Source: a virus (lineage: Duplodnaviria; Heunggongvirae; Uroviricota; Caudoviricetes). From it: a DNA stretch of 13,427 bases. Below, piece after piece: positions 57 through 13,141 of this stretch. The stretch is taken from IMG/VR virus record IMGVR_UViG_3300021142_000006; one strand, 5' to 3'. The notes below the pieces were generated by a model that searched no databases, was not told where the DNA came from, and was given only the letters and a program-made list of their open reading frames with translations. Numbering within the stretch: the first letter of the stretch is position 1; every line of letters begins with the position of its first letter. Both the position numbers and the translations under genes were made by a program.

Positions 57-72
57 AATTGTTTTGTTTCAG

Positions 73-104
73 CAAAGGTAATTCATTATTTTTAAACCAC
101 CAAA
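73..104 (-). promoter_or_regulatory. Bacteroidota-type promoter P1
   Basis: minus strand TTTG-N20-TACCTTTG, then A-rich leader to ATG 56. Confidence 0.8.
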
Positions 105-120
105 TTTATTTTTATTATTG

Positions 121-202
121 TAGTCAGGACAGGATTCGAACCTGCATACCTTTGAGGGGTCTCGTTCCCAACACCAACCGTCACCAATTGCGCCACCTGA
201 CT
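121..202 (-). tRNA. tRNA-like gene: Leu-type (class II) body with UGG (Pro) anticodon, partly degenerate
   Basis: 7-bp acceptor AGTCAGG/CCTGACT + A73; T-arm GCAGG-TTCGAAT-CCTGT; D-loop AATTGG; 15-nt variable region; loop GTTGGGA (anticodon at 168-170); imperfect anticodon stem; no encoded CCA. Confidence 0.75.
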
Positions 203-209
203 ATTTTAA

Positions 210-255
210 TCAGCCACCGCCACATGATGTTTCCATTGCATGTATTGGTGACTGA
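210..255 (-). ncRNA. GAAA-tetraloop stem-loop between promoter P2 and the tRNA-like gene
   Basis: TCAGTCACC/GGTGGCTGA outer stem (one G-U, possible only on the minus strand), ACATG/CATGT and ATG-GAAA-CAT inner stems. Confidence 0.5.
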
Positions 256-267
256 AATTTCTTATTG

Positions 268-299
268 CAAATATACAACACTATTTTGAACTTTCCAAA
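268..299 (-). promoter_or_regulatory. Bacteroidota-type promoter P2 (tRNA unit)
   Basis: TTTG-N20-TATATTTG; 41 bp (266-306) identical to 620-660. Confidence 0.8.
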
Positions 300-305
300 T
301 TTATT

Positions 306-599
306 TTACCATCTTTGTAAGAATTTTACTTTTGTTTTAATCCAATCAAGTATTTGCCCTGCATAATAACTTGTGGTTAAGTCATTCAGATAATCGTCCA
401 ACTTGCGTTCAGCTGAACTATAATCAATTGGTACTTCAAGTCTATCCCATTCCTTTGCTTTGCTTTGGTTGGAGGACTTTGAGGTACCTTTGCTCATATC
501 CCAATTCTTTGCAATTACCTTTACTTGGGTTTTAGTGGTTTCAACGGTAATTACACCGCCCTTACATAGCTCTCCGAGCTTCCAGCTTTTTGTTGCCAT
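306..599 (-). CDS. hypothetical phage protein (97 aa, MATKSWKLGE...)
   Basis: ORF track 306..635 trimmed to the ATG after the promoter leader; stop abuts the next promoter repeat. Confidence 0.8.
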   Translation of the reverse strand: MATKSWKLGELCKGGVITVETTKTQVKVIAKNWDMSKGTSKSSNQSKAKEWDRLEVPIDYSSAERKLDDYLNDLTTSYYAGQILDWIKTKVKFLQRW

Positions 600-621
600 T
601 GTTATTGTTGTTTTGTTTCTG

Positions 622-653
622 CAAATATACAACACTATTTTGAACTTTCCAAA
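622..653 (-). promoter_or_regulatory. Bacteroidota-type promoter P3
   Basis: TTTG-N20-TATATTTG + AAACAAAACAAC leader. Confidence 0.85.
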
Positions 654-658
654 TTTAT

Positions 659-919
659 TTACAATTTATTATGTATGAAAATAGGTTTGCCGAATTTCAT
701 CATAATATCGCCATAGGTAACATTGGTTGTATTTAAATCCCCCAAACCTCTATAATCCAAACATTGTTGTAATAATGTTTCGTCAAGATTTTCCTTTGGT
801 GGATAACGTAAAATAACATTACGTTTTGGGCTATATGCTATTGCAATACTGTTAAAGCATTTAACTTTAAATGTTTCATCGCCAAAATCCTCTAATGTAA
901 TTTCTCTCTCAATAACCAT
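659..919 (-). CDS. hypothetical protein (86 aa)
   Basis: ORF track; stop abuts P3 repeat; overlaps the upstream gene end. Confidence 0.75.
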   Translation of the reverse strand: MVIEREITLEDFGDETFKVKCFNSIAIAYSPKRNVILRYPPKENLDETLLQQCLDYRGLGDLNTTNVTYGDIMMKFGKPIFIHNKL

Positions 920-1104
920 CTTTGTTTTGGTTGTCGGTAGGTAATATCACCAACGGTATTGGAATTTCCACCACAATAATCACAATGCAATGATACATAT
1001 ATTTCGGTATCTATTGGCATTTGGTCGTCATTAGTTGCCAACGGTTGGTGGTCAATAATTTTAACTTGGTCGGAGCTACATAGTGGGCAGTAAAGTACTT
1101 TCAT
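892..1104 (-). CDS. small Zn-ribbon protein (70 aa)
   Basis: CPLC and CDYC pairs; start trimmed to MKVLY after P4 leader. Confidence 0.75.
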   Translation of the reverse strand: MKVLYCPLCSSDQVKIIDHQPLATNDDQMPIDTEIYVSLHCDYCGGNSNTVGDITYRQPKQRWLLREKLH

Positions 1105-1125
1105 GTTATTGTTGTTTTGTTTCTG

Positions 1126-1157
1126 CAAAGATAAGTAAGTTTATTTAAACCACCAAA
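1126..1157 (-). promoter_or_regulatory. Bacteroidota-type promoter P4
   Basis: TTTG-N20-TATCTTTG; 1108-1166 matches 1636-1694 at 58/59 nt. Confidence 0.85.
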
Positions 1158-1163
1158 TTTATT

Positions 1164-1637
1164 TTAAAATCTTTTTCTGAACCCCTCTCGCTCCATAAGA
1201 TATATAATATCTTTTAATATGTTATTTAGGTTGGTATCGTTACGTTGAAATGGTATTCTAAAATCAACGTAACCATGTTTTTTATCAGTAAAACCGCTAT
1301 CGGCTGTTGTACCATTTTCTTTGTATTTTTCATACAGTTCACCCAAAAACCTATTACCAGTAAGTTTTTCATTTTTATAATAATAATAGCCATAACTTTT
1401 TGTACGAAAAGTAATGCCATTTTTATTGGCATTGAAATATTGTGAATAGATTTTATAAATCGGACTTACCTTCATGCTTATTAAGCTATAGTCTGTACCA
1501 TCCTCAATTATATGATTGGTATGAAAGACCTGGGATAAATCATTAATGAGTTTCATGGCAAATTCCTTATTTGCCTTTGTTTCGTTAATGGCTGAAAGTT
1601 TATCAGCATTCATTGCTTGTAAAAATAGATTTTCCAT
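1164..1637 (-). CDS. hypothetical protein (157 aa)
   Basis: ORF exactly fills the space between repeats P5 and P4. Confidence 0.85.
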   Translation of the reverse strand: MENLFLQAMNADKLSAINETKANKEFAMKLINDLSQVFHTNHIIEDGTDYSLISMKVSPIYKIYSQYFNANKNGITFRTKSYGYYYYKNEKLTGNRFLGELYEKYKENGTTADSGFTDKKHGYVDFRIPFQRNDTNLNNILKDIIYLMEREGFRKRF

Positions 1638-1653
1638 TGTTGTTTTGTTTCTG

Positions 1654-1685
1654 CAAAGATAAATAAGTTTATTTAAACCACCAAA
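1654..1685 (-). promoter_or_regulatory. Bacteroidota-type promoter P5
   Basis: TTTG-N20-TATCTTTG + leader. Confidence 0.85.
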
Positions 1686-1696
1686 TTTATTTTAGT

Positions 1697-1926
1697 CTAT
1701 TTATTATAATTTGGTACTTTGAATATAATGTTATTAACCATAATAACTTTACCAATCAAGTCATCAATAAAATAGCCTCTATTATATTTGTCATAAAATC
1801 TTTGGTCATCACTCCAATCTTCTGGTTTATTAAGCAGGTCATATGTTTCTTTGGAATTGTAGCGGTCTTCTCTACCCCAATTATCAATGGTTTCAATTCA
1901 ATCGGTAATTTCGATAATTTACTCAT
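1697..1926 (-). pseudogene. frameshifted small CDS (MSKLSKLPIELK / TIDNWGREDRY...VPNYNK)
   Basis: ATG 1926 overlaps the upstream stop; a protein-like startless frame 1897-1697 lies in the -1 frame and ends next to P5. Confidence 0.55.
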
Positions 1927-2506
1927 AATCAATTTTTCCGCAACGGATTGTATTTGTCGGCTGTTCAAACCAACCAAAGTAACATTCACCATAAGTTAAA
2001 CCAATCTCTTCTTGGAATAAAATTTTACCTTCATCTTCATCATCCACCCATGTTGTATTGTCATATCGATTAATATAAAAACCATTGTCATTTGCCATTT
2101 CAAGTTCATTATCAATAAGGTCATTATATTGTTCAATAGCTTGTTTTTCATTCCAAAATGATATTGTGCTTTCATCCACATACTCGCTGAAATCGGCAAC
2201 GTAATGGGTAACATCATCATTCACTTTGGCTGAACCAATTTGGTAACAATGATTAACCTCACCAATTAATTCATCCAAAGCAACATTCTCCCCACCATTG
2301 AACCGCCACATACTAACATTGCCCTTGGCATCTAATGTAGGAAAATAAACTTCACCCTCGACAAGTTGTTCATCCAAACAAACCTTTAACAATGGGTTTG
2401 TTACGGCAATGAAATAATCTCTTGCTTTGGCTGAACTATCAAAGAATAAAACCTCACTATCACCAGTAAGGTGCTTTGTTATCATAACGTAGTGCAATGT
2501 TTTCAT
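1919..2506 (-). CDS. hypothetical acidic protein (195 aa)
   Basis: ORF track; ATG follows P6 leader. Confidence 0.85.
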   Translation of the reverse strand: MKTLHYVMITKHLTGDSEVLFFDSSAKARDYFIAVTNPLLKVCLDEQLVEGEVYFPTLDAKGNVSMWRFNGGENVALDELIGEVNHCYQIGSAKVNDDVTHYVADFSEYVDESTISFWNEKQAIEQYNDLIDNELEMANDNGFYINRYDNTTWVDDEDEGKILFQEEIGLTYGECYFGWFEQPTNTIRCGKIDYE

Positions 2507-2522
2507 TGTCGTTTTGTTTTTG

Positions 2523-2554
2523 CAAAGATAAATAACAATATTTAAACCACCAAA
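2523..2554 (-). promoter_or_regulatory. Bacteroidota-type promoter P6
   Basis: TTTG-N20-TATCTTTG + leader. Confidence 0.85.
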
Positions 2555-2578
2555 TTTATTAAAATAAGTAGTTTTTAT

Positions 2579-2920
2579 TTATAATGAATTTCCTGTACCT
2601 TTATAAATTAAAGTAATTACATTTCTTGGTATATTATCGTATGTAACAACACACTTATTATCACACTCCTTATCCCTAAACCATTCATTATTAATCAATG
2701 AGCAGTCAATTAACCAAACATCATCATCAAATGTACTATCATACGAATTGTCAATGTTACCAAATATTGCAGGTGGTTCGGTATTTTCAGGTGAATGGCA
2801 ACTATAACTATCACCTTTCATCACCATCAACCCAAACCTCTCAATATCCATTCTAAAGATTGGATTAGATTTATGATACACTAATAATGGTGTAACTTTA
2901 TCACCTTTATGTTTTAACAT
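2579..2920 (-). CDS. putative ADP-ribosyltransferase-fold (Tpt1/KptA-like) protein (113 aa)
   Basis: VYHKS...I...GL N-terminal motif, VWLID strand, VVTYDNIP...I C-terminal motif, recalled from ART/KptA-like families. Confidence 0.55.
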   Translation of the reverse strand: MLKHKGDKVTPLLVYHKSNPIFRMDIERFGLMVMKGDSYSCHSPENTEPPAIFGNIDNSYDSTFDDDVWLIDCSLINNEWFRDKECDNKCVVTYDNIPRNVITLIYKGTGNSL

Positions 2921-2943
2921 ACTGCAAAGTTATTTTGTTGTTG

Positions 2944-2975
2944 CAAAGATAAGTAAGAATATTCAAACCACCAAA
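2944..2975 (-). promoter_or_regulatory. Bacteroidota-type promoter P7 with a second -7 box (TAACTTTG, 2925-2932) downstream
   Basis: TTTG-N20-TATCTTTG. Confidence 0.8.
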
Positions 2976-3068
2976 TTTATTAAAAAAATGGATAGGCTAT
3001 TAACCAAAAAGTATTTCTTTTGTATGACTTTTACTTAATATTAAACTATTTATATAAAACTAATAAAC

Positions 3069-3239
3069 ATGAGAAAGAAACTTAACGAAAACGAAAAGAA
3101 ACAACCCATTAGCATTAAAGTTGACCCTATCCTATTTGATGAACTGAACAAGATTAAAAACAAATCTAAATACATTGAATATCTAATATATCAAGATATG
3201 AAAAATAAAAATGTTATTAAACAAGATATAATATTATGA
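3069..3239 (+). CDS. small ribbon-helix-helix-like DNA-binding protein (56 aa; not in ORF track)
   Basis: MRKKLNENEKKQPISIKVDPILFDELNKIKNKSKYIEYLIYQDMKNKNVIKQDIIL; ISIKV strand + helix + NKSKYIE helix; ATGA overlap with the next gene. Confidence 0.7.
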   Translation: MRKKLNENEKKQPISIKVDPILFDELNKIKNKSKYIEYLIYQDMKNKNVIKQDIIL

Positions 3240-3868
3240 TATGTACTAAATGTGCTGTGGATCAACCAGCTAATTCTTTTTATAGAAAAAAATCTTCAAG
3301 TACTGGGTATTCAAAAATTTGTAAGTCCTGTGAATTGGCAGGTAAGAGAGAATATTATAAAGCAAATAAGATTGATATTCTTGAAAAGCAAAAAAAAGAT
3401 AATAACCGAAAAGAATACATGCGTAATTATATGCGTGAGAAACACCCACGTAAAACCGAACGAAGAGTAAGGTTTAGATTTGAATATGATGGTGCTCCGA
3501 ACTCATCAAAATATATTTCAGCCAGACGAAAAGTTGATCCTCTATTTAGGTTTAAATTAAATATAAAAGATAGTGTACGGAAAGCATTAAAAAAGAACGG
3601 ATATAAAAAGAATAGTAAAACTTTTGATATAATTGGTTGTACCTTTGAGGAATTCAAAACACATATTGAATCTCTTTGGGAATCATGGATGACCTGGGAG
3701 AATTACGGTTTATATAAAAAGGGGGAATATAATGTCGGTTGGGATATTGATCACATTGAACCTCTTTCCTCGGCTATAAATGAAGAAGGTGTAATAGCTT
3801 TAAACCATTACACCAATCTTCAACCCTTATGCTCTAAGGTAAATCGTGATGAAAAGAAAGCAAATTAA
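3236..3868 (+). CDS. HNH-type (homing-like) endonuclease with N-terminal Zn finger (210 aa)
   Basis: CTKC...CKSC, basic linker, WENYG...WDIDHIEPL...HYTNLQPL...N motif. Confidence 0.8.
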   Translation: MICTKCAVDQPANSFYRKKSSSTGYSKICKSCELAGKREYYKANKIDILEKQKKDNNRKEYMRNYMREKHPRKTERRVRFRFEYDGAPNSSKYISARRKVDPLFRFKLNIKDSVRKALKKNGYKKNSKTFDIIGCTFEEFKTHIESLWESWMTWENYGLYKKGEYNVGWDIDHIEPLSSAINEEGVIALNHYTNLQPLCSKVNRDEKKAN

Positions 3869-3876
3869 CATTCTTA

Positions 3877-4563
3877 TTAACTTTCGGCAACCAATAAGGT
3901 TCGGTACTCTTCCTCGGTCAAATGCCTCGGTTCGCAAAATCTATTTTCCTTTGGCTTAACCAATATGCAATCACCTTGTCGGATAATCTTTTCAATGTTG
4001 TCCTTCTCAATATTCACTTGCATTGTCCATGCAATGGCTTGTATGGCATTTACCATTTTTGGGGTGAAATAAGCAAAGTTTAAATAACCTTTGTTTACAT
4101 CATAATTTGTTCGGTACACATCTTGAATATCAACCCATATCATGTATTGTCTATCGGTAGATGTATCTTTGAACTTCACAAAATGACAAGGTTGCATTTT
4201 CTGCCAATCTTTTAACCCCTCACTAAGATATTCGCCTGAAACCTCAAACAATTCATAGGTATCATCAAAGGTAACAGTTTCCAATTCACCCTTTGAATTT
4301 ATCCATGTTGTTTTTTTCTTAATTGTTTGTCGGTCAATTAATTCTGGCTGAATTTGCTCAACCAACCTTTCCAAACCTAAACATAACATACCAACTCGTC
4401 TATGTTCAAGGTTTTCAAACTTTGCAATCTCGGCAAAGGTCATGGGCTTAATATCATTCCAAAATTCAGCCAAACTTGGAAAAGGACATTCAGTATGCTT
4501 TAGTTTAAGCAATCGGCAACCCTCATCATAAGGGAAAGTTATATTATCTATTACAATTTTCAT
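3877..4563 (-). CDS. DUF6745-like protein (228 aa) with C-terminal RQGD motif
   Basis: EN.EHRR..M..LG.ER, D.ST.RQY..WV, A.QAIAWT motifs recalled from DUF6745-type proteins. Confidence 0.6.
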   Translation of the reverse strand: MKIVIDNITFPYDEGCRLLKLKHTECPFPSLAEFWNDIKPMTFAEIAKFENLEHRRVGMLCLGLERLVEQIQPELIDRQTIKKKTTWINSKGELETVTFDDTYELFEVSGEYLSEGLKDWQKMQPCHFVKFKDTSTDRQYMIWVDIQDVYRTNYDVNKGYLNFAYFTPKMVNAIQAIAWTMQVNIEKDNIEKIIRQGDCILVKPKENRFCEPRHLTEEEYRTLLVAES

Positions 4564-4577
4564 ATATATTTGTTGTT

Positions 4578-5228
4578 TTAATCTTTTTTGAAAACAGTTA
4601 CATTATAGTCAATGGATATTGTTAATTCGTTACCTTGCAAAGTTAATTCAGCAGTATCGGCATGGTTATCAATTTGTGTGCTAAAGGTAAACCAATCCTC
4701 TAATTCACCATCTAATTCGTCTTTAGGTTCAAAGGTACGGACAAAATCCCATAACTTATCTTCAAGGTCTTTAAGCATGGCTTCTTCTTCATCGGTCATA
4801 ATGAAATCATGCTTAAAGTTAGTGGTTACAGAGCCATCACCGCCATTAATATTATTCACATGCTCGGCAAGGAATTTGGCTTCTTCTTCAGTCAAAGTAT
4901 ATATTGTTTCTTCTGTACCGCTTTCACTATACTCATATTCGGTATCTTTGGAAAAGGTGAAATCGTCTTCCTCGTCATTCAGTTGAACATTAACTGTGCC
5001 GCTTTCACCGTTATAGTGTCCATCGGAATTTACATAAAATTCCACATCATTATAAACTCGTTCATCAAGGTAATCCTTAATCACATCATCTTTTATCACT
5101 TCACCCTCTTTGTCAAGCAATTCCCATTCGGTATTGCCCATGCTATCACCGCCACAAGAAAAAATAAAGTTAGCTTGTTCTATGCCCTTTTCTTTCCATA
5201 GGGCTATTACTGTTTCTAAGTTTTTCAT
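4578..5228 (-). CDS. DUF6878-like very acidic protein (216 aa)
   Basis: FSCGGDSMG and NSDGHYNGESGTV motifs; GGDS/GGDG-like motif occurs twice. Confidence 0.55.
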   Translation of the reverse strand: MKNLETVIALWKEKGIEQANFIFSCGGDSMGNTEWELLDKEGEVIKDDVIKDYLDERVYNDVEFYVNSDGHYNGESGTVNVQLNDEEDDFTFSKDTEYEYSESGTEETIYTLTEEEAKFLAEHVNNINGGDGSVTTNFKHDFIMTDEEEAMLKDLEDKLWDFVRTFEPKDELDGELEDWFTFSTQIDNHADTAELTLQGNELTISIDYNVTVFKKD

Positions 5229-5235
5229 TATTTTG

Positions 5236-5631
5236 TTATTGTTTTATTGTTTCCAAAAATTGTTCCGCAATCTTAATACTCTCAGGATTATCAATTACCT
5301 TAACCCCATTGTGCATCCAAGGCTGTAATACCATGTGCTGTAAATAGTCCTGTGGTGTTGGGATAAACTTTCCTCTAAAATCCTCGGCAATGTGCAACAT
5401 GGCAATATCTACCGTATCAACACTTTTACCATCAGAATTGACAATATTGTAGCCAAATATCTTAGGTATGATAGTGTAGGCAAACCATGTGTTATGGGTT
5501 AGCATACGACTTGAATTGTTATTCATAGCCACCTTTGGGCTGTCAAGTAAAATATGAATATCCATGTAATCAGATATTTTACCACCAAATCTTTTAACGC
5601 TGGATTTTGCGTGAATTTCAGGATTTGCCAT
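5236..5631 (-). CDS. DUF6915-like His-rich protein (131 aa)
   Basis: MANP.IHA.SS.KRFGG...DY..IH...D, R..TH, H..ED....IPT..DYL pattern. Confidence 0.7.
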   Translation of the reverse strand: MANPEIHAKSSVKRFGGKISDYMDIHILLDSPKVAMNNNSSRMLTHNTWFAYTIIPKIFGYNIVNSDGKSVDTVDIAMLHIAEDFRGKFIPTPQDYLQHMVLQPWMHNGVKVIDNPESIKIAEQFLETIKQ

Positions 5632-5668
5632 TGTTGTTTTGTTTTGCTTTGGTTAAAGAAAGAATTTG

Positions 5669-5932
5669 TTAATCCCAAATAGTTGAAACAGTTTGTTTGA
5701 ATGGGTTATACTCAACTTGTCTGCCCATACTCCAATTACCTTTTTCAACCTTTAAGGTATTGTGTTCGGCAAATTTGCCATTGGGTTCTTCGTGTCTTAG
5801 CTGACTGTCCTCGTTAACAGTAACCTCGCTAAAATGTGTGTGGTCATCGGCAACATTAATGTTACCATACAATGTGTGCATGTTAGCACCTTCCCCTTTT
5901 AGGATAGTGTGTTGTTTTTTGTTTTTTTTCAT
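5669..5932 (-). CDS. small beta-rich His-containing partner of DUF6745-like genes (87 aa)
   Basis: GEG...H, L.HE, H..L...G.W...RQ.EY.P.....D pattern. Confidence 0.65.
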   Translation of the reverse strand: MKKNKKQHTILKGEGANMHTLYGNINVADDHTHFSEVTVNEDSQLRHEEPNGKFAEHNTLKVEKGNWSMGRQVEYNPFKQTVSTIWD

Positions 5933-5952
5933 TTTGAATGATTTAGTTTTAG

Positions 5953-5983
5953 CAAAGGTAATAATTAGTTTTGAAATAACAAA
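5953..5983 (-). promoter_or_regulatory. Bacteroidota-type promoter P8 (drives the four-gene module)
   Basis: TTTG-N19-TACCTTTG. Confidence 0.75.
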
Positions 5984-5989
5984 TAAAAA

Positions 5990-6015
5990 AACACATATTT
6001 CTAAAAATATGTGTT
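5990..6015. promoter_or_regulatory. 26-bp palindrome AACACATATTT-CTAA-AAATATGTGTT (candidate operator; AT-rich terminator is the alternative)
   Basis: perfect 11-bp inverted repeat; 23/26 identical to 12140-12165. Confidence 0.5.
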
Positions 6016-6247
6016 ATAGGTGTGTTGAATAACCACAATTAAGACATTCTATATAAGGTTTACCACCGTTCTGTTGCTGTTGTACTGAAAGAATAACCCA
6101 GGATCCACAATCACAATCAGGACAATTTGATTCAGGTAAACGTTCCTCCAATGTGGGCAATTGTTTTTGGTTTGGGTAAACGTGAGCAATAACTTTATCA
6201 GCTGGTATTTCTTTTAGTACGGATTGGAAAAATCTTGGCTTAGTCAT
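6014..6247 (-). CDS. Zn-ribbon protein (77 aa)
   Basis: CPDC and CLNC pairs. Confidence 0.75.
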   Translation of the reverse strand: MTKPRFFQSVLKEIPADKVIAHVYPNQKQLPTLEERLPESNCPDCDCGSWVILSVQQQQNGGKPYIECLNCGYSTHL

Positions 6248-7130
6248 GTTGTTTTGTTTTTACAAAGGTAAGGAATTTTTTCTCACCAACAACTTTTTTA
6301 ACACTAAATTTATCCCTGTTCTTCATTTTATTTAAAAAGTTTGTGGCTTCCTTTTCATTAATAAAGCTTTTGCCTCCAGTTAAATTATAGGAATAATGAA
6401 ATCCAGTCCTTGTATTTTTAATGAAACTAAAGTTTTCTCCATATGCCAGTACGTAATATTCGTTTACCGTCACCGTAACCTTATCATTATTCCTATTAAT
6501 CTTATTGATTTTGTTTAAGTTTACCTTTTTATCCATAAAACCCTGCATCCCACTTTGCTTTAGGAAAATGTTGAATTTCGAACCGTAGTACTCCCTGTAT
6601 TCTTTAATCGTATTAACCAATTGTTCAGTTGAACTGAACCAAACGTCAGGCTTAATTTCCAAACCTTTGTCGGTAATATCTGTATCTTTCCACCTGTATA
6701 CATATAAACAAATAGATACTCCGTTCGCCTTCAATTCCTCAATTGTCATTGCATTCTTAATAGCATTCTTATAGAAAGCTTTGTATTGAGAAAATGTTGT
6801 ATTCCTTGTACCTTTACCGTACATAGCTACAGCAACATGATACCCCCAGTGCTTATCGTTATACTCCCAACCTTCACCATATTTTTTGGTATCATCTTCA
6901 CATCTCTCAATTGTCTTCAACCTGTACTCATCGATATTTTGCAACAATTCATTATTGTTGGCAATGATATTCATACCGTTAGTGTGGGCATAGCTGTTAC
7001 ACCAATCCCTCGCTCTACGCCTGTCGTTACGACCCTCATAGACATTGTTATCTCCCTGTAATATGAAAGGTATAACATGATTGTCATCCACCTTTATGAA
7101 TTGTCGGTTATATAAAATTGTAAAAGACAT
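6240..7130 (-). CDS. hypothetical phage protein (296 aa)
   Basis: long ORF; C-terminus runs through promoter P9. Confidence 0.85.
   Translation of the reverse strand: MSFTILYNRQFIKVDDNHVIPFILQGDNNVYEGRNDRRRARDWCNSYAHTNGMNIIANNNELLQNIDEYRLKTIERCEDDTKKYGEGWEYNDKHWGYHVAVAMYGKGTRNTTFSQYKAFYKNAIKNAMTIEELKANGVSICLYVYRWKDTDITDKGLEIKPDVWFSSTEQLVNTIKEYREYYGSKFNIFLKQSGMQGFMDKKVNLNKINKINRNNDKVTVTVNEYYVLAYGENFSFIKNTRTGFHYSYNLTGGKSFINEKEATNFLNKMKNRDKFSVKKVVGEKKFLTFVKTKQHD
6263..6293 (-). promoter_or_regulatory. Bacteroidota-type promoter P9 inside the 3' end of the 296-aa CDS
   Basis: GTTG-N19-TACCTTTG + AAAAACAAAACAAC leader to ATG 6247. Confidence 0.65.
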
Positions 7131-7135
7131 GTTGA

Positions 7136-7345
7136 TTATATTTTAGTTAAGGTATCCAAATAAATTATTTCATAGTTTATACAAACATATTCACGTTCAT
7201 CCATTTCACTATCCAACCAAACTTTTGCCTTACCAAAAGGTACGTTATTAATATTAATAACCACATCTTGTCCACCATTGTCCGTGTATGACAATTCTTC
7301 GTAGGCTTTAAAAGGTACATTAGTATCTTCCGTTATTTTTTTCAT
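7136..7345 (-). CDS. hypothetical protein (69 aa)
   Basis: ATG follows P10 leader. Confidence 0.8.
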   Translation of the reverse strand: MKKITEDTNVPFKAYEELSYTDNGGQDVVININNVPFGKAKVWLDSEMDEREYVCINYEIIYLDTLTKI

Positions 7346-7361
7346 AGTTGTTTTGTTTCTG

Positions 7362-7393
7362 CAAAGATAAGTAATAGTATTTAAATCACCAAA
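7362..7393 (-). promoter_or_regulatory. Bacteroidota-type promoter P10
   Basis: TTTG-N20-TATCTTTG + leader. Confidence 0.85.
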
Positions 7394-7398
7394 TTTTT

Positions 7399-7568
7399 TT
7401 AAGAATTATTTAGATCCAAACCAGGAATAGTTTTTATTTCAACCAAACCAAAAAATAGATCGTCACCCTTCACCTTATCAATTAATTGTTTTCTACTATG
7501 TTTAAGAATTTCATAATCGGTCTTATTATCATCAACTGTTACAAGTACCTGTAAGTTTATCTTTCCAT
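7399..7568 (-). pseudogene. startless/frameshifted small CDS (..KINLQVLVTVDDNKTDYEILK...LDLNNS)
   Basis: 56-codon protein-like open frame 7569-7399 whose stop abuts P10; the nearest ATG (7568) is one base out of frame. Confidence 0.5.
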
Positions 7569-8042
7569 ATTAGGATCATACTCATGATTAATCTTTTTCC
7601 AAACTAATAAAAAATTAGGATTATATTTCTTATCACACTTGGTACATGAACCTTTACGAGTACTTAAACTCAATCGCAATCTTTTAAATTCATGTCCATT
7701 GGGGCAAGTACCGATATAGTTAGGTGTTGGTTTGGGTAAATCGCTACTGTAACAACGGTCACCGTTACAACCAATTTCCCTTGCTTTCATCCTCCAGTAA
7801 CTATCATGCCCATGTTTATGTCCAACCAGTGCATGGGCAATCTCATGCAATATTGTATCTTTTACCTGAAATTCATCGTTCAGTTGAACCAAATGTTTGG
7901 ATAAGGTAATCTTTTTCCATGTGTAATTACATCCTCCAAAACGTCTTTTAGCATTGTCAAACTCAAACTGCCAACCATTATCAATAAGGTTGTGTTTGTT
8001 CATTAATTCAATTGCCAGTTGTTCCGCTTTAACTAAATCCAT
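7557..8042 (-). CDS. SprT-like zinc metalloprotease (161 aa)
   Basis: TILHEIAH, HGHD..W...A.EIG, RRFGGC motif, C-terminal CPNGH/CTKC Zn ribbon; start trimmed from 8075. Confidence 0.9.
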   Translation of the reverse strand: MDLVKAEQLAIELMNKHNLIDNGWQFEFDNAKRRFGGCNYTWKKITLSKHLVQLNDEFQVKDTILHEIAHALVGHKHGHDSYWRMKAREIGCNGDRCYSSDLPKPTPNYIGTCPNGHEFKRLRLSLSTRKGSCTKCDKKYNPNFLLVWKKINHEYDPNMER

Positions 8043-8061
8043 TGTCGTTATTTTGTTTATG

Positions 8062-8092
8062 CAAAGAAACAACAACTTTTTTAATTTCCAAA
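8062..8092 (-). promoter_or_regulatory. variant promoter P11
   Basis: TTTG-N19-TTTCTTTG (TA->TT) + leader. Confidence 0.55.
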
Positions 8093-8116
8093 CAAATAAA
8101 CATATATTTGTTTTTG

Positions 8117-8386
8117 TTATTCGTTTACATTACTCCAAATTAAATAGTATTCAAGCCCAGAGTTATTTTCCCATGAGCCATTTTCGAGGGCGTTATCGAT
8201 TTCTTCATCAATATCCAAATCCGCATCGGTACTATTTCCCTTATGGGCATCCCTTATTAGTTTAATAAAATATTCTTCAGCTTTTTCAACCATTGGGTTT
8301 AGATGTTTTGTATCATTATGAATTACAAAGCTTTCAACGGTATTTAAAATACCACGGTCTATTTCAACCACATTTATTATTCTCAT
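8117..8386 (-). CDS. hypothetical acidic protein (89 aa)
   Basis: ATG follows P12 leader. Confidence 0.8.
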   Translation of the reverse strand: MRIINVVEIDRGILNTVESFVIHNDTKHLNPMVEKAEEYFIKLIRDAHKGNSTDADLDIDEEIDNALENGSWENNSGLEYYLIWSNVNE

Positions 8387-8402
8387 TTTTATTTTGTTTT
8401 TG

Positions 8403-8435
8403 CAAAGATAAGAAATAAAGTTGGATTACTCCAAC
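8403..8435 (-). promoter_or_regulatory. Bacteroidota-type promoter P12 overlapping the upstream stop codon
   Basis: TATCTTTG -7 box; GTTGG in place of TTTGG at -33. Confidence 0.65.
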
Positions 8436-9001
8436 TCTATTCCCAATTCTTTTAAATTTGTATTTAATATCCGATCCCCATTTTTAAGTATTGGCAATAT
8501 TTGTGTCTTAATTTGTGTGGTTAAACCATTGATACCAATATATTCAACCATATTTTTCAAATCACCTGCCTTAAATGTTATAAGCCTATACCCATTATCA
8601 TTACCAATACAAATACCTTTCAACATATCCTTTTCCAATTTCTTAAGAAATTTCTTTTTCTCTTTGGCTGAAAGAAAATCATCAATCAAACAGAAACATA
8701 TATGTTCTATTTGTGTATCTATTGTTATATTTTCCAATTTTATAAAATCCCAACCATTGTCAAACATAAGTTGTCTAACATTGTTTTGAACGCATAAGTC
8801 CTGTAGGATAACACCTGCGTCCGACTTCAAATGCAAGTCGACTTCACCACCCCAACCATCATCATTGTAATATCCAACATTCTTTTTGTCCAAATAGATA
8901 TTGGCAAATAAACCCTGTAGGTCATGTCCAAATCCTTCTTTAATGTTTTTTACAGATACCCTGTCGGTAATTGCCTTTGGTAATACTTTAATTCTTGTCA
9001 T
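8426..9001 (-). CDS. hypothetical phage protein (191 aa)
   Basis: ANIYLDKK.VG...DDGWGG motif; start trimmed from 9040 to MTRIKV. Confidence 0.85.
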   Translation of the reverse strand: MTRIKVLPKAITDRVSVKNIKEGFGHDLQGLFANIYLDKKNVGYYNDDGWGGEVDLHLKSDAGVILQDLCVQNNVRQLMFDNGWDFIKLENITIDTQIEHICFCLIDDFLSAKEKKKFLKKLEKDMLKGICIGNDNGYRLITFKAGDLKNMVEYIGINGLTTQIKTQILPILKNGDRILNTNLKELGIELE

Positions 9002-9017
9002 AGTTATTTTGTTTTTG

Positions 9018-9049
9018 CAAAGATATATTACAGCATTCAAACCACCAAA
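9018..9049 (-). promoter_or_regulatory. Bacteroidota-type promoter P13
   Basis: TTTG-N20-TATCTTTG + leader. Confidence 0.85.
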
Positions 9050-9072
9050 CTATTTAACATATATTTTTTTAA

Positions 9073-9109
9073 ATAATAAAATCCCCCAATCAATTAAGAC
9101 TGAGGGATT
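9073..9109 (-). terminator. intrinsic terminator
   Basis: AATCCCTCAGTC-TTAATT-GATTGGGGGATT (two G-U pairs, minus strand only) followed by TTTATTATTT. Confidence 0.75.
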
Positions 9110-9139
9110 CCAAACAAAACAAACAACAAATAACACTCT

Positions 9140-9346
9140 TTATGTTAAGCACCAACAGGTGGGCTTCAAAAAGATATCTCTACGTTCGAAGATATCTCCA
9201 ACTTTATAAGTATGCTTGGTCATCTTACCATTGGCATCTGGAAACTTAACTTCATGTTCCTTTATGCACTTAAGCCTAACCGTAGATTCTGGGTTGTATA
9301 CAACGTCCAGCTCATCATTCAATTTCTTACTCTTAACCATTACCAT
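9140..9346 (-). CDS. hypothetical protein (68 aa)
   Basis: start trimmed because the ORF-track start at 9361 lies in the -7 box. Confidence 0.65.
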   Translation of the reverse strand: MVMVKSKKLNDELDVVYNPESTVRLKCIKEHEVKFPDANGKMTKHTYKVGDIFERRDIFLKPTCWCLT

Positions 9347-9358
9347 GTTTTTTTTATA

Positions 9359-9390
9359 CAAAAGTAATCATTAATTTTGAACCAGTCAAA
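9359..9390 (-). promoter_or_regulatory. Bacteroidota-type promoter P14
   Basis: TTTG-N20-TACTTTTG. Confidence 0.7.
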
Positions 9391-9401
9391 TATTTGTTTT
9401 A

Positions 9402-9710
9402 TTAATCCTGTTGGTAAAGACGATAATAAACATGTTCATATATTGCGTTCATACTATCTGTATCCAAATCCATCATGTCATGGATTAAACCAGTTTCATC
9501 TTTCACACAAACACATTTATTGAAATAATCATAAAATATTGTCGATACATCAACATTGCCATTGTCATTTGTAATACCAATACCCATATTAATGCAATCC
9601 AATTCACCTATGGGTTCCATCATGGCTTCAACCTCTTTATTTATGGCTAAACGAATCTTGCCAATTTGGTCTTCCATGAAATCTATAAACTCCCTTTTCT
9701 GAGCTGCCAT
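9402..9710 (-). CDS. hypothetical protein (102 aa, MAAQKREF...)
   Basis: ATG 1 nt after the upstream stop (9712). Confidence 0.75.
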   Translation of the reverse strand: MAAQKREFIDFMEDQIGKIRLAINKEVEAMMEPIGELDCINMGIGITNDNGNVDVSTIFYDYFNKCVCVKDETGLIHDMMDLDTDSMNAIYEHVYYRLYQQD

Positions 9711-9711
9711 A

Positions 9712-9930
9712 TTATTGGATTTTAGAAATTGTATACAAATCGAACCAAATATGACCGTATTTTGCTTCATACAAATTATAGAACTCATCATCGGTCAAGT
9801 CATCAAAGTTATCCACAATGTCTTCATCTCTGATATCGGACATGGCGGAATTCCTTTCTTCTTCCATAAAGAATTTAACAACCCTATCTATGGCATCCTT
9901 TTGAGCTAAGGTAATATTTGTGTTGTTCAT
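9712..9930 (-). CDS. hypothetical acidic protein (72 aa, MNNTNITL...)
   Basis: start trimmed to remove the overlap with 9935..10150. Confidence 0.75.
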   Translation of the reverse strand: MNNTNITLAQKDAIDRVVKFFMEEERNSAMSDIRDEDIVDNFDDLTDDEFYNLYEAKYGHIWFDLYTISKIQ

Positions 9931-9934
9931 AATA

Positions 9935-10150
9935 TTATTTTGTTTTAAATAAAAAGAATGCAGGCATTGAGTATTGTGGCTCACTCTTATAATCATCGAT
10001 TATATCTTCGACATTTTCATGAAGTTCATCCCTAACTTTGTTGGCAAAGCTTCTTCTTGAAGCTTCAACAATTTCATGATCTGGCGCATTCTCATCCACA
10101 ATCACCCTTGTGACCATGGATATATAAACCAATTTTGCTACCTTTGACAT
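9935..10150 (-). CDS. hypothetical protein (71 aa)
   Basis: ORF track; operon packing. Confidence 0.7.
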   Translation of the reverse strand: MSKVAKLVYISMVTRVIVDENAPDHEIVEASRRSFANKVRDELHENVEDIIDDYKSEPQYSMPAFFLFKTK

Positions 10151-10156
10151 TTTATT

Positions 10157-10462
10157 TTATTTTGTGAAATCAGGTGAACAACTGATACGTCCTTTTGGAA
10201 CATATCTTTCTTTTTGTGATGCAGGCGGAACATACCCATTGTTGAATGCCACAGGCAATTCATCAAAAGGAACATTTGATTCAGCCAAACTTAAGTTAGC
10301 CTCAACCAACAAAACGGCAATATCCGTTTCTGTGAAGTTTGTTATATCTTTATCCAAACTGATATAGATTAATATGCTTTCCCTAACATCATCTATTGAT
10401 GTGGAATTGTAAGATAGCTTTAATTCACCACCTGTCTTGTTGTTTGTTATTTTGTAATACAT
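10157..10462 (-). CDS. hypothetical protein (101 aa)
   Basis: ATG follows P15 leader. Confidence 0.75.
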   Translation of the reverse strand: MYYKITNNKTGGELKLSYNSTSIDDVRESILIYISLDKDITNFTETDIAVLLVEANLSLAESNVPFDELPVAFNNGYVPPASQKERYVPKGRISCSPDFTK

Positions 10463-10485
10463 TGTATGGGTTAGTTTTGTATTGG

Positions 10486-10517
10486 CAAAGATAAAACAAT
10501 AAATTCAAACAACCAAA
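10486..10517 (-). promoter_or_regulatory. Bacteroidota-type promoter P15
   Basis: TTTG-N20-TATCTTTG. Confidence 0.8.
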
Positions 10518-10522
10518 TTATT

Positions 10523-10771
10523 TTAAACAATTATTTTAATATAATATGTTGGATACATCTTTAGTTTGGTTAAACCAGAATCAAATTCAAGATCATGTGT
10601 CTTCACACACCTGTAGGTATCTGCATAAAATTTATTACCTTTGCGATCCTCGAAGTCAACCCTCTTACCAGGAACAAAATTTGAACTGGTACTTATAACC
10701 TGGAACAAGTTTTCAGCTCGTTCAATCGAAGCAATCAAAATGCCTTCATTTCCTCTGATTTAAATATTCAT
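10523..10771 (-). pseudogene. small CDS with in-frame TAA at codon 4 (MNI*IRGNEGILIASIER...)
   Basis: ATG 10771 sits 3 nt after the upstream stop and is in frame with the 10523..10738 ORF; TAA at 10760-10762; a TTG start at 10738 is the alternative. Confidence 0.55.
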
Positions 10772-10774
10772 ATA

Positions 10775-10966
10775 TTAATTATTATTTAATATCTCAAAAT
10801 CGATACCTTCAATATTTTCCCAGGATTCATTTATAAAGATCTCAAATTGATTATCTTTACCTTCATTATACCTTGCCTGATATATTGAATCATTATCAAT
10901 TAATATCCCACTGTCAGTTGAAAAACTGTAGTCATCCTTAAGATCCTTTCTGATTGTTACTAACAT
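10775..10966 (-). CDS. hypothetical protein (63 aa)
   Basis: ORF track; operon packing. Confidence 0.75.
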   Translation of the reverse strand: MLVTIRKDLKDDYSFSTDSGILIDNDSIYQARYNEGKDNQFEIFINESWENIEGIDFEILNNN

Positions 10967-10978
10967 ATTTGATCCCTT

Positions 10979-11761
10979 TTAATAAACACAATTTGTATCA
11001 TTTTCGGCAATGATGAATTTATTTTTGGATAAATCAATTTTGTTTCTTACCTTCTTAAACTTAAGACCACATATAACAGTTTTTGGGTCAAGGTACCTTA
11101 AATCGGTTTCATCAGCATTCACGACAGGATATCCCTTGTAAGTTTTGGGCAGTCTCTTCTCGAATACAACCGCAACCCTAACACCTGAATTTAAAGCCCT
11201 CTCGCATTCATCCCAATTTTTACCTGAAAACGAATATGTTAAATCGTAATTTTTATATTCTTTGGTTAGGCTAAACCTTTTAGCCACCTTTGTGTAATCA
11301 TAAAATTGTACAGTAGGAAATAATTCAAAAAAGGTTTTACCATTGTATACAAATAAGGTAGGGTCAATATCGGACGTACCGTTAAACCTAACAGCAAATT
11401 CCATACCCTTGCTTTCAGCTTGCAATTTGTATGCAACTATTTCTGCATACAACCATGAGTTGAAAAAAGCCCTATTCTGAAAAAATAACTTAGTTTTATT
11501 TATTCTGGCAGTATTAATTACATTGTGTATATCGATACGATTATGCCCACTTTCAGATAAACAAGCTTTCTTACATTCAATAGTATGCTTTGGACAAACA
11601 TTATAACCTGAAAGATCAGCAGGAGCCAAATATATAATGTAGGTTAACACATTCTTTTTTGTGTTCTTTTTAATCTTTTGTGACAAAGATACTCCGCCAA
11701 GATAGGATAATTTTGTTTGCTTAACAGCTTGCGACCTGTTTGTAAATACTAAGTTAGTCAT
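10979..11761 (-). CDS. GP88-like Cys-cluster (radical-SAM-like) protein (260 aa)
   Basis: CPKHTIECKKAC (Cx6Cx3C), RFNGTSD, FYDYTK, YDLTYSFS, VAVVF, D..DLRYLDP, GLKFK; start trimmed from 11854. Confidence 0.75.
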   Translation of the reverse strand: MTNLVFTNRSQAVKQTKLSYLGGVSLSQKIKKNTKKNVLTYIIYLAPADLSGYNVCPKHTIECKKACLSESGHNRIDIHNVINTARINKTKLFFQNRAFFNSWLYAEIVAYKLQAESKGMEFAVRFNGTSDIDPTLFVYNGKTFFELFPTVQFYDYTKVAKRFSLTKEYKNYDLTYSFSGKNWDECERALNSGVRVAVVFEKRLPKTYKGYPVVNADETDLRYLDPKTVICGLKFKKVRNKIDLSKNKFIIAENDTNCVY

Positions 11762-11784
11762 ACGTTTATTTTGTTTTGTTGGCA

Positions 11785-11815
11785 CAAAGATAAAACATCC
11801 TTTCACAAAAACAAA
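11785..11815 (-). promoter_or_regulatory. Bacteroidota-type promoter P16
   Basis: TTTG-N19-TATCTTTG + leader. Confidence 0.75.
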
Positions 11816-11822
11816 AAAAAAC

Positions 11823-11856
11823 AAAAAAAAATGCCACATATTTTTATGTGACATTT
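11823..11856 (-). terminator. intrinsic terminator
   Basis: ATGTCACATA-AAAA-TATGTGGCAT (one G-U on minus) followed by a long T run. Confidence 0.65.
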
Positions 11857-11909
11857 ATTACCCTTTATACAATAAGCACCAATATTACTTAGTAGCTTTT
11901 GCATCAGCC

Positions 11910-11929
11910 TGCTTAGCATTGCTTAGCAT
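11910..11929. repeat. perfect 10-bp tandem duplication TGCTTAGCAT x2
   Basis: 11910-11919 = 11920-11929. Confidence 0.95.
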
Positions 11930-12095
11930 GAGCTTCATGCTTCACTGGTGTTGTTGGTTTTACAGCTGGCTTAACAACTGGCTTAACTGTCTTATCAGTC
12001 TTTACTTTAGCTGAATCAACTTTGTGAGCTGACTGAGCTGTAGCGGTTACGCTTAGCATCCCTGCTAACATAACAAATACAATCATTTTTTTCAT
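11913..12095 (-). CDS. secreted Lys/Pro/Ala-rich peptide (60 aa; 66 aa ending 11885 if the duplication is removed)
   Basis: MKK + hydrophobic core + ATA|Q signal-peptide pattern; repeated VKP motifs. Confidence 0.8.
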   Translation of the reverse strand: MKKMIVFVMLAGMLSVTATAQSAHKVDSAKVKTDKTVKPVVKPAVKPTTPVKHEAHAKQC

Positions 12096-12100
12096 ACATA

Positions 12101-12132
12101 CAAAAGTACTAACAATTTTTAACTAAAACAAG
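12101..12132 (-). promoter_or_regulatory. promoter P17, probably leaderless
   Basis: CTTG-N20-TACTTTTG, ATG only 5 nt downstream. Confidence 0.6.
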
Positions 12133-12139
12133 TTATATC

Positions 12140-12165
12140 AACATATATTTTTAAAAATATGTATT
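12140..12165. promoter_or_regulatory. 26-bp quasi-palindrome AACATATATTT-TTAA-AAATATGTATT between divergent promoters
   Basis: 23/26 identical to 5990-6015; perfect 16-bp core at 12145-12160. Confidence 0.5.
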
Positions 12166-12172
12166 AAATAAA

Positions 12173-12203
12173 TTTGGAGGTATCAATATTGTGATTATCT
12201 TTG
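12173..12203 (+). promoter_or_regulatory. Bacteroidota-type promoter P18 (plus strand)
   Basis: AATAAA-TTTG-N19-TATCTTTG + AAAACAAAACGAA leader to ATG 12223. Confidence 0.85.
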
Positions 12204-12222: not shown

Positions 12223-12567
12223 ATGGCAAAAATCTATTCTGCTCCCAAGGATCCAAAGCTTCCTGATTTAAATTTTGGTAATATTAAAGGTTATCATGTG
12301 GCCTGCGACAAATACCTGTCAGACCTCAAAGATCTTTTACGCAATAGGAATCCCACCGAACATGTTGGTGAGACAATTAAATTCCCAGTGGCAGATGGCT
12401 ACGCAATGTATATGGTTGCTTCAATCAAACCACTGGAACTGGTTCATATACAATTATGGGACGCATGGCATTTCGATTATGCTAATAGACTAACGGCAAA
12501 AGATGTAAAAGAAAAAATTGCCCAAGAACAATCCCTAAGGAAATTATTCGAATCCAAATCAAAATAG
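12223..12567 (+). CDS. hypothetical phage protein (114 aa)
   Basis: VGE.I.F.VADG.A.YMV motif; follows P18. Confidence 0.85.
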   Translation: MAKIYSAPKDPKLPDLNFGNIKGYHVACDKYLSDLKDLLRNRNPTEHVGETIKFPVADGYAMYMVASIKPLELVHIQLWDAWHFDYANRLTAKDVKEKIAQEQSLRKLFESKSK

Positions 12568-12596
12568 TATATTTAACATTTAAAATCAAAACAAAA

Positions 12597-13070
12597 ATGG
12601 GAACAAGATCTCTAACTAACATTATCCGAAAGTATACGGATAAAGATTCCAAAGTACGTACAAACAAAATTGCAACAATGTACCGTCAATTCGATGGGTA
12701 CCCTAAAGGCCACGGAACTGAGCTTGCTCGGTTCCTTGCCTCTGGCAAACTTGTTAACGGAATCGGTTTATCCAAAGATAACCTACAATTATTTAACGGC
12801 ATTGGATGCCTCGCCGCACAAATTGTCTCACACTTCAAAGGTGACACCCCTGGTGATATTTACCTCTACAAACCTGGTACCACAAATGTGTGGGAGGATT
12901 ACGCCTACGATGTTATTGTCGATGAAGGTACAAACTTCAACTATAACGAGCGATCATTAATCCTCAAATGTAAAAGTATTGGGTCTAAACGAAATAAAGT
13001 ACTATTCGAAGGTACCCCAAAAGAATTCCTTGAATGGGTTAAAAAACCTGAAATAGTAGAATCCCACTAA
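12597..13070 (+). CDS. conserved hypothetical phage protein (157 aa)
   Basis: MGTRSLT...YRQFDGYP..HG..L...FNG.GCLAAQ pattern typical of a widespread uncharacterised phage family. Confidence 0.85.
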   Translation: MGTRSLTNIIRKYTDKDSKVRTNKIATMYRQFDGYPKGHGTELARFLASGKLVNGIGLSKDNLQLFNGIGCLAAQIVSHFKGDTPGDIYLYKPGTTNVWEDYAYDVIVDEGTNFNYNERSLILKCKSIGSKRNKVLFEGTPKEFLEWVKKPEIVESH

Positions 13071-13109: not shown

Positions 13110-13141
13110 TTTGTATCATAATTTATTAACCTTTAAATTTG
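13110..13141 (+). promoter_or_regulatory. Bacteroidota-type promoter P19 (plus strand)
   Basis: TTTG-N20-TAAATTTG, 10 nt before ATG 13152. Confidence 0.6.

Follow-up and report, generated by a model that had tools for sequence, protein, structure and literature searches.

We analysed a 13,427-nt stretch of virus DNA (Caudoviricetes; IMG/VR record IMGVR_UViG_3300021142_000006), which we refer to as the window, and in it an array of small genes separated by copies of a short promoter-leader module. These Bacteroidota-type modules probably double as recombination sites for the turnover of gene cassettes, as judged from the anatomy of the junctions that distinguish related arrays. The modules occur in large excess and are clustered, close relatives differ by cassettes whose junctions lie inside modules, and copies of the module within one genome have evolved in concert.

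The exact pattern TTTG-N19-21-TAnnTTTG is found 15 times in the window (13 on the minus strand and 2 on the plus strand) against 0.80 expected, and none of 200 shuffled sequences reached 15. With a relaxed definition, which allows TTG at −33 and one T[AT]nnTTTG variant, we count 17 minus-strand and 2 plus-strand sites, all just upstream of genes with leaders of 5–65 nt, in agreement with the number given by a first-pass annotation of this DNA. That annotation had also described conservation beyond the two boxes, and alignment on the −7 box reveals an AATAAA head, TTTGG, TTnAA in the spacer, TATCTTTGCA and a AAACAAAACAAC leader. Two module subfamilies are 97–100% identical over 32–59 bp; the stretches at 1108–1166 and 1636–1694 match over 59 bp with 98% identity, and the modules at 268–299 and 622–653 are identical. 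The array extends past the left end of the window: on contig L013 it contains ~24 gene-proximal modules within 17.5 kb. Its flanks are poor in modules, with 2 chance-like matches in 11 kb on one side and ~3 plausible ones in ~10 kb on the other. The window shows no excess of classical sigma-70 sites (72 versus 68.8 expected).

The consensus of the primary sigma factor of Bacteroidota (sigma-ABfr) has TTTG at −33 and TANNTTTG at −7, avoids G at the two free positions of the −7 box and includes AT-rich spacer motifs; the −7 consensus TAnnTTTG has been refined as TAHHTTTG, ~19–21 nt from the −33 TTTG (PMC6847099). Flavobacterium johnsoniae does without Shine–Dalgarno (SD) sequences, and A at leader positions −3, −6, −12 and −13 raises translation (PMC6847099). 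The sequences of the window modules correlate well with the published boxes, spacer and G avoidance, as the first-pass assignment to the Bacteroidota sigma consensus had it: the free −7 positions are TC, CC, TA, CT or AA and never G, and the leaders are A-rich and SD-less, with A at −3, −6, −12 and −13. The modules are predicted to be promoters of the Bacteroidota sigma-A type with their leaders, read by the host RNA polymerase, and they would fire early in infection. Terminator-like hairpins are also more numerous in the window than expected (13 versus 6.5), with ~3 of them adjoining modules (9077–9112, 11829–11856 and 8411–8444), and a stable hairpin is absent from the main module families of the window.

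The features of the window are listed below, with the genes that each module is predicted to drive (aa, amino acids; ORF, open reading frame).

73–104, minus strand: module 1; 74-aa gene running off the left end
268–299, minus strand: module 2; tRNA-Pro(UGG)-like gene at 120–202, via a 65-nt leader
622–653, minus strand: module 3; 97-aa gene (306–599)
1126–1157, minus strand: module 4; 70-aa (892–1104) and 86-aa (659–919) genes; chimera of modules A and B of contig L022
1654–1685, minus strand: module 5; 157-aa gene (1164–1637)
1108–1694, minus strand: 157-aa cassette, bounded by 59-bp repeats (1108–1166 and 1636–1694)
2523–2554, minus strand: module 6; 195-aa gene (1919–2506) and an overlapping 56-aa ORF
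2513–2928, minus strand: segment lost in a subpopulation; 113-aa gene and module 6
2944–2975, minus strand: module 7; 113-aa gene (2579–2920)
5953–5983, minus strand: module 8; four-gene unit at 3877–5932 (87, 131 [DUF6915], 216 and 228 aa)
6263–6292, minus strand: module 9, with TTG at −33, within the 3′ end of the 296-aa gene; 77-aa gene (6014–6247)
7362–7393, minus strand: module 10; 69-aa and 296-aa genes (6240–7345)
7139–8048, minus strand: segment lost in contig L019 and in 4 runs; 69-aa gene, module 10 and SprT-like gene
8062–8091, minus strand: module 11, with the −7 box variant TTTCTTTG (canonical in L019); SprT-like gene (7557–8042)
8403–8434, minus strand: module 12; 89-aa gene (8117–8386)
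9018–9049, minus strand: module 13; 191-aa gene (8426–9001); preceded by the terminator-like hairpin at 9077–9112
9359–9390, minus strand: module 14; 68-aa gene (9140–9346)
9991/9992, minus strand: site lacking 188 bp of contig L020, which has a module and a folded leader there
10486–10517, minus strand: module 15; 101-, 71-, 72- and 102-aa genes (9402–10462)
11785–11815, minus strand: module 16; GP88-family gene (10979–11761) and a 63-aa gene
12101–12131, minus strand: module 17; 60-aa gene (11913–12095); leftward half of a divergent promoter pair
12173–12203, plus strand: module 18; 114-aa and 157-aa genes (12223–13070)
13110–13141, plus strand: module 19, a weaker match; 124-nt leader to the next plus-strand gene

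The units behind the minus-strand modules are less uniform than the single-gene cassettes that had been proposed. Only ~10 of the 17 hold a single gene; others drive two to four genes, and the module at 268–299 drives the tRNA-like gene, which is an RNA cargo. Similarly, the stop codon of one gene abuts the head of the next module, at a distance of 6–7 nt, in three of the five places named for it (306, 659 and 1164) and not in the other two: the stop at 7399 belongs to a 24-aa ORF, and that at 10523 to a TTG-start ORF called by no gene caller. The latter, of 71 codons (10523–10738, minus strand), takes up the gap of 312 nt that precedes module 15 and stops 6 nt short of the module head; it may be a genuine gene that starts unusually, or else the remnant of a cassette.

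Evidence for exchange at the modules comes from a comparison of L013 with two relatives, L022 and L030. L022 was found via homologues of the 157-aa protein (84% aa identity), and L030 was the sole locus returned by a metagenome scan with a 23-nt module core. The 284-aa anchor protein has only two relatives; the 296-aa protein has many, none closer than 57% except for a deletion variant, and for this reason the right two-thirds of the window was compared with population variants only. The segments shared by L013, L022 and L030 are 79–100% identical in DNA, and gene content differs by whole cassettes. The first-pass annotation had named beforehand the position of breakpoints in relatives as its test; we find that gene order is not kept, and that many of the breakpoints of gain, loss and replacement lie inside the repeats.

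Several of the junctions lie inside modules. In L022, a 120-aa gene lies between modules A and B, and in L013 one module occupies that place. The L013 module is chimeric: its head and spacer are those of A and its leader end is that of B, joined around a 27-bp core common to both. Two more assemblies, made from other samples, also span the L022 arrangement. Between the 195-aa homologue and the 70-aa gene, L030 contains module B once and L022 contains it twice, on either side of the 107-, 154- and 120-aa genes. The 157-aa cassette is present in L013 and L022 and absent in L030. One orthologous gene thus follows different modules in different lineages. A 510-bp insert in L022, with a 17-nt leader repeat at its ends, brings in a module that shares 88% identity with the SprT module of the window; this SprT-type module stands before a different gene in L022, so that modules, too, are transferred from one gene to another. 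L030 further contains an extra 72-codon gene between a stop codon and the next module head. The 97-aa gene (306–599) is 76% identical between L013 and L030 with flanks at 95–100%, and is bounded by two mutually identical modules; it represents an allelic cassette. A stretch of 6.2 kb that reaches to the 3′ end of the tRNA-like gene is free of mismatches between L013 and L030, which diverge beyond it.

The modules themselves also carry traces of exchange. Those of the 97-aa gene and the tRNA-like gene are identical to one another within L013 and identical to one another within L030, the L013 and L030 copies differ at the same two positions, and L022 has one of each type. In addition, the module of the 157-aa gene is 97% identical to its L013 neighbour and 75% identical to its L022 orthologue, the gene itself being 92% identical. 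These patterns of identity are as repeated exchange between copies would predict.

Cassette variants are also observed within lake populations, as read from Logan contigs of four lake runs. A joint of 2512 to 2929, present in 3 runs and at a depth of 80 of ~270 in run X19, represents a leader-to-leader loss of the 113-aa gene and one module. A second joint, 7138/8049, was seen in contig L019, in 4 runs and in a 16-member cluster of a 317-aa protein; it removes two genes and a module and sets the SprT module before the 296-aa gene, with 6 nt shared between the two sides. Both joints leave a module and leader directly before the next gene. In each of the four runs, the interior of the 157-aa cassette has 29–72% of the depth of its flanks, a pattern consistent with L030-like genomes in the same samples. 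In X19 (2018, lake), ~70% of the population is without the SprT segment (7139–8048), and most is also without the 157-aa cassette. This pattern of depth and joints indicates that cassette content differs strongly between co-occurring strains. Joints of the kind that a cassette circle would produce, in which the sequence goes back on itself, were not present at any cassette in the Logan contigs of the four runs, and such contigs cannot reveal rare forms. Two joints of this type at the window ends, several loose ends and the joints 1134/10143, 3996/5005 and 10787/12570 (sides of 21–29 nt) were set aside as partial matches to other module copies.

The same architecture recurs in distant relatives, which have module sequences of their own; L025 contains ~40 copies within 16 kb, and L027 contains 11. 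In the L027 group (L027, L038, L040 and L041; marker protein 91–95% identical), block ends cluster at −33 to −41 and at +4 to +25 of the modules, and a position taken by one module in L038 is filled in L040 by two modules with two genes between them. A hairpin and a run of T precede some modules of the L027 lineage. The contigs L025 and L026 are identical, as are L027, L028 and L029, and these comparisons are hence uninformative. In L038, a three-gene block (69, 64 and 114 aa; 6512–8265) is tandemly duplicated with no module at its borders, so module-independent rearrangements also occur.

Some modules carry additional sequence features. An A/T-rich palindrome with half-sites like AACAAATATAT lies just upstream of the SprT-type module 11 (8092–8120, minus strand) and accompanies its module to a different gene in L022 (4766–4796); it is a possible operator of this module subfamily. 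The leader after one L022 module (4829–4879) contains tandem 8-nt repeats, four of CAACAAAT followed by three of CAACAAAA, which suggests slippage or unequal exchange within leaders. In L020 (4440–4590), a module is followed by a ~130-nt leader predicted to form a multi-branched fold with a 17-bp closing stem (−49.9 kcal/mol, z = −4.3) and matching no Rfam family. The window has lost the 5′ part of this folded leader, and L003, L005, L010 and L015 have the form with a 79-bp duplication. In the tRNA-like gene, the acceptor, D and T parts are kept between lineages, and the anticodon and variable region are replaced in L030 (~9600–9690).

We counted breakpoints in a region from −50 to +25 of each −7 box, which covers 10.4% of the array. 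This region holds 13 of 23 breakpoints (binomial P = 7e-8 versus uniform placement), and 10 of the 13 intergenic breakpoints versus 43.5% expected (P = 0.016). The breakpoints were compiled by hand from the ends of BLAST blocks, and some of them enter two comparisons; in view of this and of the use of assemblies as comparators, the anatomy of the junctions is a stronger argument than the P values. Most crossovers map to the −7 box and leader or to the AT-rich head; they are not spread over the promoter as a whole. The earlier proposal that the promoter itself is the recombination handle is supported by the chimeric module, the duplicated flanking modules and the concerted evolution, and has to be narrowed in that ~40% of breakpoints lie elsewhere and crossovers are not promoter-wide.

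A number of observations weigh against a role of the modules in recombination. About 10 of the 23 breakpoints (~40%) fall outside modules, in coding sequence, at microhomology, at the 3′ or 5′ end of a tRNA or at gene ends without a module. Among them, a 72–76-bp indel inside coding sequence fuses two genes, and the 188-bp absence at 9991/9992 relative to L020 has a coding 3′ end and a leader as its breakpoints rather than two modules. L005 and L015 diverge wholly at the 3′ end of the tRNA-like gene (119/120), a recurrent mosaic breakpoint at which L013 and L030 also switch to 100% identity. The joints 2512/2929 and 7138/8049 share only 5–6 nt each, the enrichment among intergenic breakpoints alone is modest, and the comparators are all metagenome assemblies, which may switch strains at shared repeats. 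Moreover, modules make up 44% of intergenic space, such that selection for intact genes alone would favour breakpoints there. Finally, the conservation outside the boxes is in part simply functional: leader and spacer features match known determinants of promoter and translation function, and that function alone accounts for this part.

The last two of these points, together with the events that share only 5–6 nt or none, are what would be seen if the modules were ordinary strong promoters with their leaders, and if illegitimate recombination struck at random and selection for intact genes left breaks in intergenic, mostly module, sequence. We consider this unlikely. It leaves unexplained the chimeric module and its 27-bp core, the two exact copies of module B that enclose inserted genes, the 17-nt leader sequence repeated at the ends of the L022 insert and the lineage-specific substitutions shared by paralogous modules, and intergenic breakpoints are still enriched in modules when their 43.5% share is allowed for (10 of 13). 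The likeness of the modules could instead be maintained by a phage-specific factor (a regulator, a modified RNA polymerase, an RNase or a translation factor), with recombination as a by-product. The conservation of each lineage's own module and leader flavour across 11 to ~40 copies (L027 and L025) would agree with such a factor, as would the upstream palindrome that travels with a subset of modules. We regard this as improbable, given that all flavours retain the host consensus boxes, that exchange itself is indicated by the chimeric junctions and by concerted evolution at positions that look neutral, and that no candidate factor was identified; it is also compatible with, and not exclusive of, recombination at the modules. 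The idea that the cassette differences are assembly artefacts, created by jumps between repeated modules or strains, draws on the facts that every comparator is an assembly, that contigs often end inside the array and that the Logan joints have short sides (34–48 nt). This is very improbable: the L022 structure is found in three assemblies from different samples and pipelines, the 7138/8049 joint recurs in 4 runs, in L019 and in the 16-member 317-aa cluster, depth profiles agree with the variants, and the extra genes are real sequence that must lie somewhere, with repeats shorter than reads.

We therefore favour recombination at the modules, for which we propose the following mechanism. Each module comprises an AT-rich head, often containing the stop codon of the previous gene, a predicted promoter of the sigma-A type and a 15–25-nt A-rich, SD-less leader. 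Within a variable part of the phage genome, it stands before one to four small, functionally uncharacterised genes. Because 25–60 bp are nearly identical between copies, modules may serve as sites of homologous or short-homology recombination, both within a genome and between co-occurring relatives. Exchange between two modules would delete, insert or replace the genes between them or move modules between genes, and gene conversion would keep paralogous modules alike. A gene captured in this way would arrive with a promoter and a translation start region. The exchanges are presumably made by a general or phage recombination system. More tentatively, it is possible that a group of large freshwater Bacteroidota phages, comprising the lineages of the window, L025 and L027, runs a promoter-borne form of gene capture with lineage flavours homogenised by gene conversion. 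Crossing-over in the −7 box and leader would then fit genes or RNAs, including the tRNA-like gene, with an optimal promoter and an SD-less start, and the flavour, besides being an expression signal, would act as a recombination barcode that limits exchange to co-infecting kin.

The closest described system is that of the promoter-early stem-loop (PeSL) cassettes known from the T4-type phages RB49/phi1, T4/PST and KVP40/nt-1 (Arbiol et al. 2010, PMC2839356; Comeau et al. 2014, PMC4122927). A PeSL consists of a repeated early promoter with an AT-rich head that includes the upstream stop codon, located before ORFans in hyperplastic regions; PeSL indels are bounded by the motif, and homologous recombination and mini-circles have been proposed to account for them (PMC2839356; PMC4122927). 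Like PeSLs, the window has, at the level of sequence, a reiterated strong host-type promoter motif with an AT-rich head that holds the previous stop and ends at the next translation start; its modules are clustered in a variable region of small ORFans, and indels and replacements between close relatives are bounded by the motif and leave a chimeric copy. Despite these similarities, the window array is not a strict member of this class. Its promoter is of the Bacteroidota −33/−7 type in lieu of sigma-70, with an A-rich, SD-less leader; most of its modules are without a stem-loop or terminator, which only some modules of the L027 lineage have; its crossovers lie mostly in the −7 box and leader; and one of its cargoes is a tRNA-like RNA. 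The phage is, in addition, unrelated to T4-likes and without similarity to sequenced phages.

Integrons use the tyrosine-recombinase integrase IntI, attI and attC sites and a single Pc promoter for promoterless cassettes. The window resembles them as a one-directional row of small, exchangeable and mostly single-gene units separated by a repeated element. It has, however, neither an integrase nor imperfect palindromes of the attC kind, a promoter comes with every unit in place of a single Pc, and exchange appears to depend on homology and not to be site-specific. The term integron-like, which had been applied to the array, fails on every defining feature and is retained only as an analogy, and the accompanying claim that no integrase is needed agrees with the absence of any recombinase or integrase family among the window proteins. 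Overall, the first-pass interpretation is supported in part. According to the module theory of Susskind and Botstein and later lambdoid comparisons, short conserved intergenic linkers are reportedly preferred crossover points at which functional modules are exchanged. In the present array, too, short conserved sequences between genes probably act as crossover points, with the difference that the linker is one reiterated expression signal in ~24 tandem copies; this reiteration also permits deletion, duplication and gene conversion within a genome.

A 29-kb contig from a lake metagenome (L004) contains the window at 100% identity, and its DNA is also included in ~20 near-identical contigs from many freshwater samples. 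The region further lies on contigs of 150 and 190 kb (L030 lies on a 190-kb contig), on which the flanks of the array consist mostly of ORFans with some PHROG hits. For this reason we accept as the source a large phage, likely an uncultured freshwater phage of at least 190 kb. Its promoter and leader type, the one clue to the host, suggests a Bacteroidota bacterium. An origin in the leading region of an integrative and conjugative element or plasmid, an idea raised by the DUF932, SprT-like and DUF1281_C genes, is less likely, since the 150–190-kb contigs are almost all ORFans with PHROG hits. The window genes are mostly small and mostly encoded on the minus strand. Family matches exist for only four of them (GP88, SprT-like, DUF6915 and, on the opposite strand, HNH/endonuclease VII-like), the remainder being ORFans. 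The genes called in the flanks likewise included no integrase or recombinase family, and no hallmark gene was seen in the stretches read. Searches of the sequenced phages in INPHARED (50,697 records) gave no DNA match in near or distant mode and no match to the 296-aa protein, and distant phage homologues were limited to the DUF932 protein. The IMG/VR search with the exact module pattern returned zero matches, a search of IMG/VR with the GP88 protein returned only loci at 44% identity, which were not used further, and NCBI homologue names obtained via protein clusters included none that was telling. We found no RNA sequencing runs that contain window DNA.

The most AT-rich part of the array (3050–3870, plus strand; GC 27%) contains two genes on the opposite strand, one HNH/endonuclease VII-like (210 aa) and the other of 56 aa; this segment looks like an inserted homing-endonuclease-type gene. 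To the left of the array, L031 (3061–5866) encodes a GAF-PAS histidine kinase, a YceI-like protein and a response regulator, an unusual cargo for a phage.

Promoter-cassette shuffling as described here is no new principle. Our analysis extends it from T4-like phages of Proteobacteria, where it has been known so far, to an unrelated lineage of large phages with Bacteroidota signals, and makes the process visible among co-occurring strains in time-series metagenomes of lakes. The ~24 natural, compact promoter-plus-leader parts are candidate expression tools for Flavobacteria and their relatives. For the phages themselves, shuffling at the modules would provide a simple account of the turnover of many small unknown genes, which are likely to be host-interaction or anti-defence cargo.

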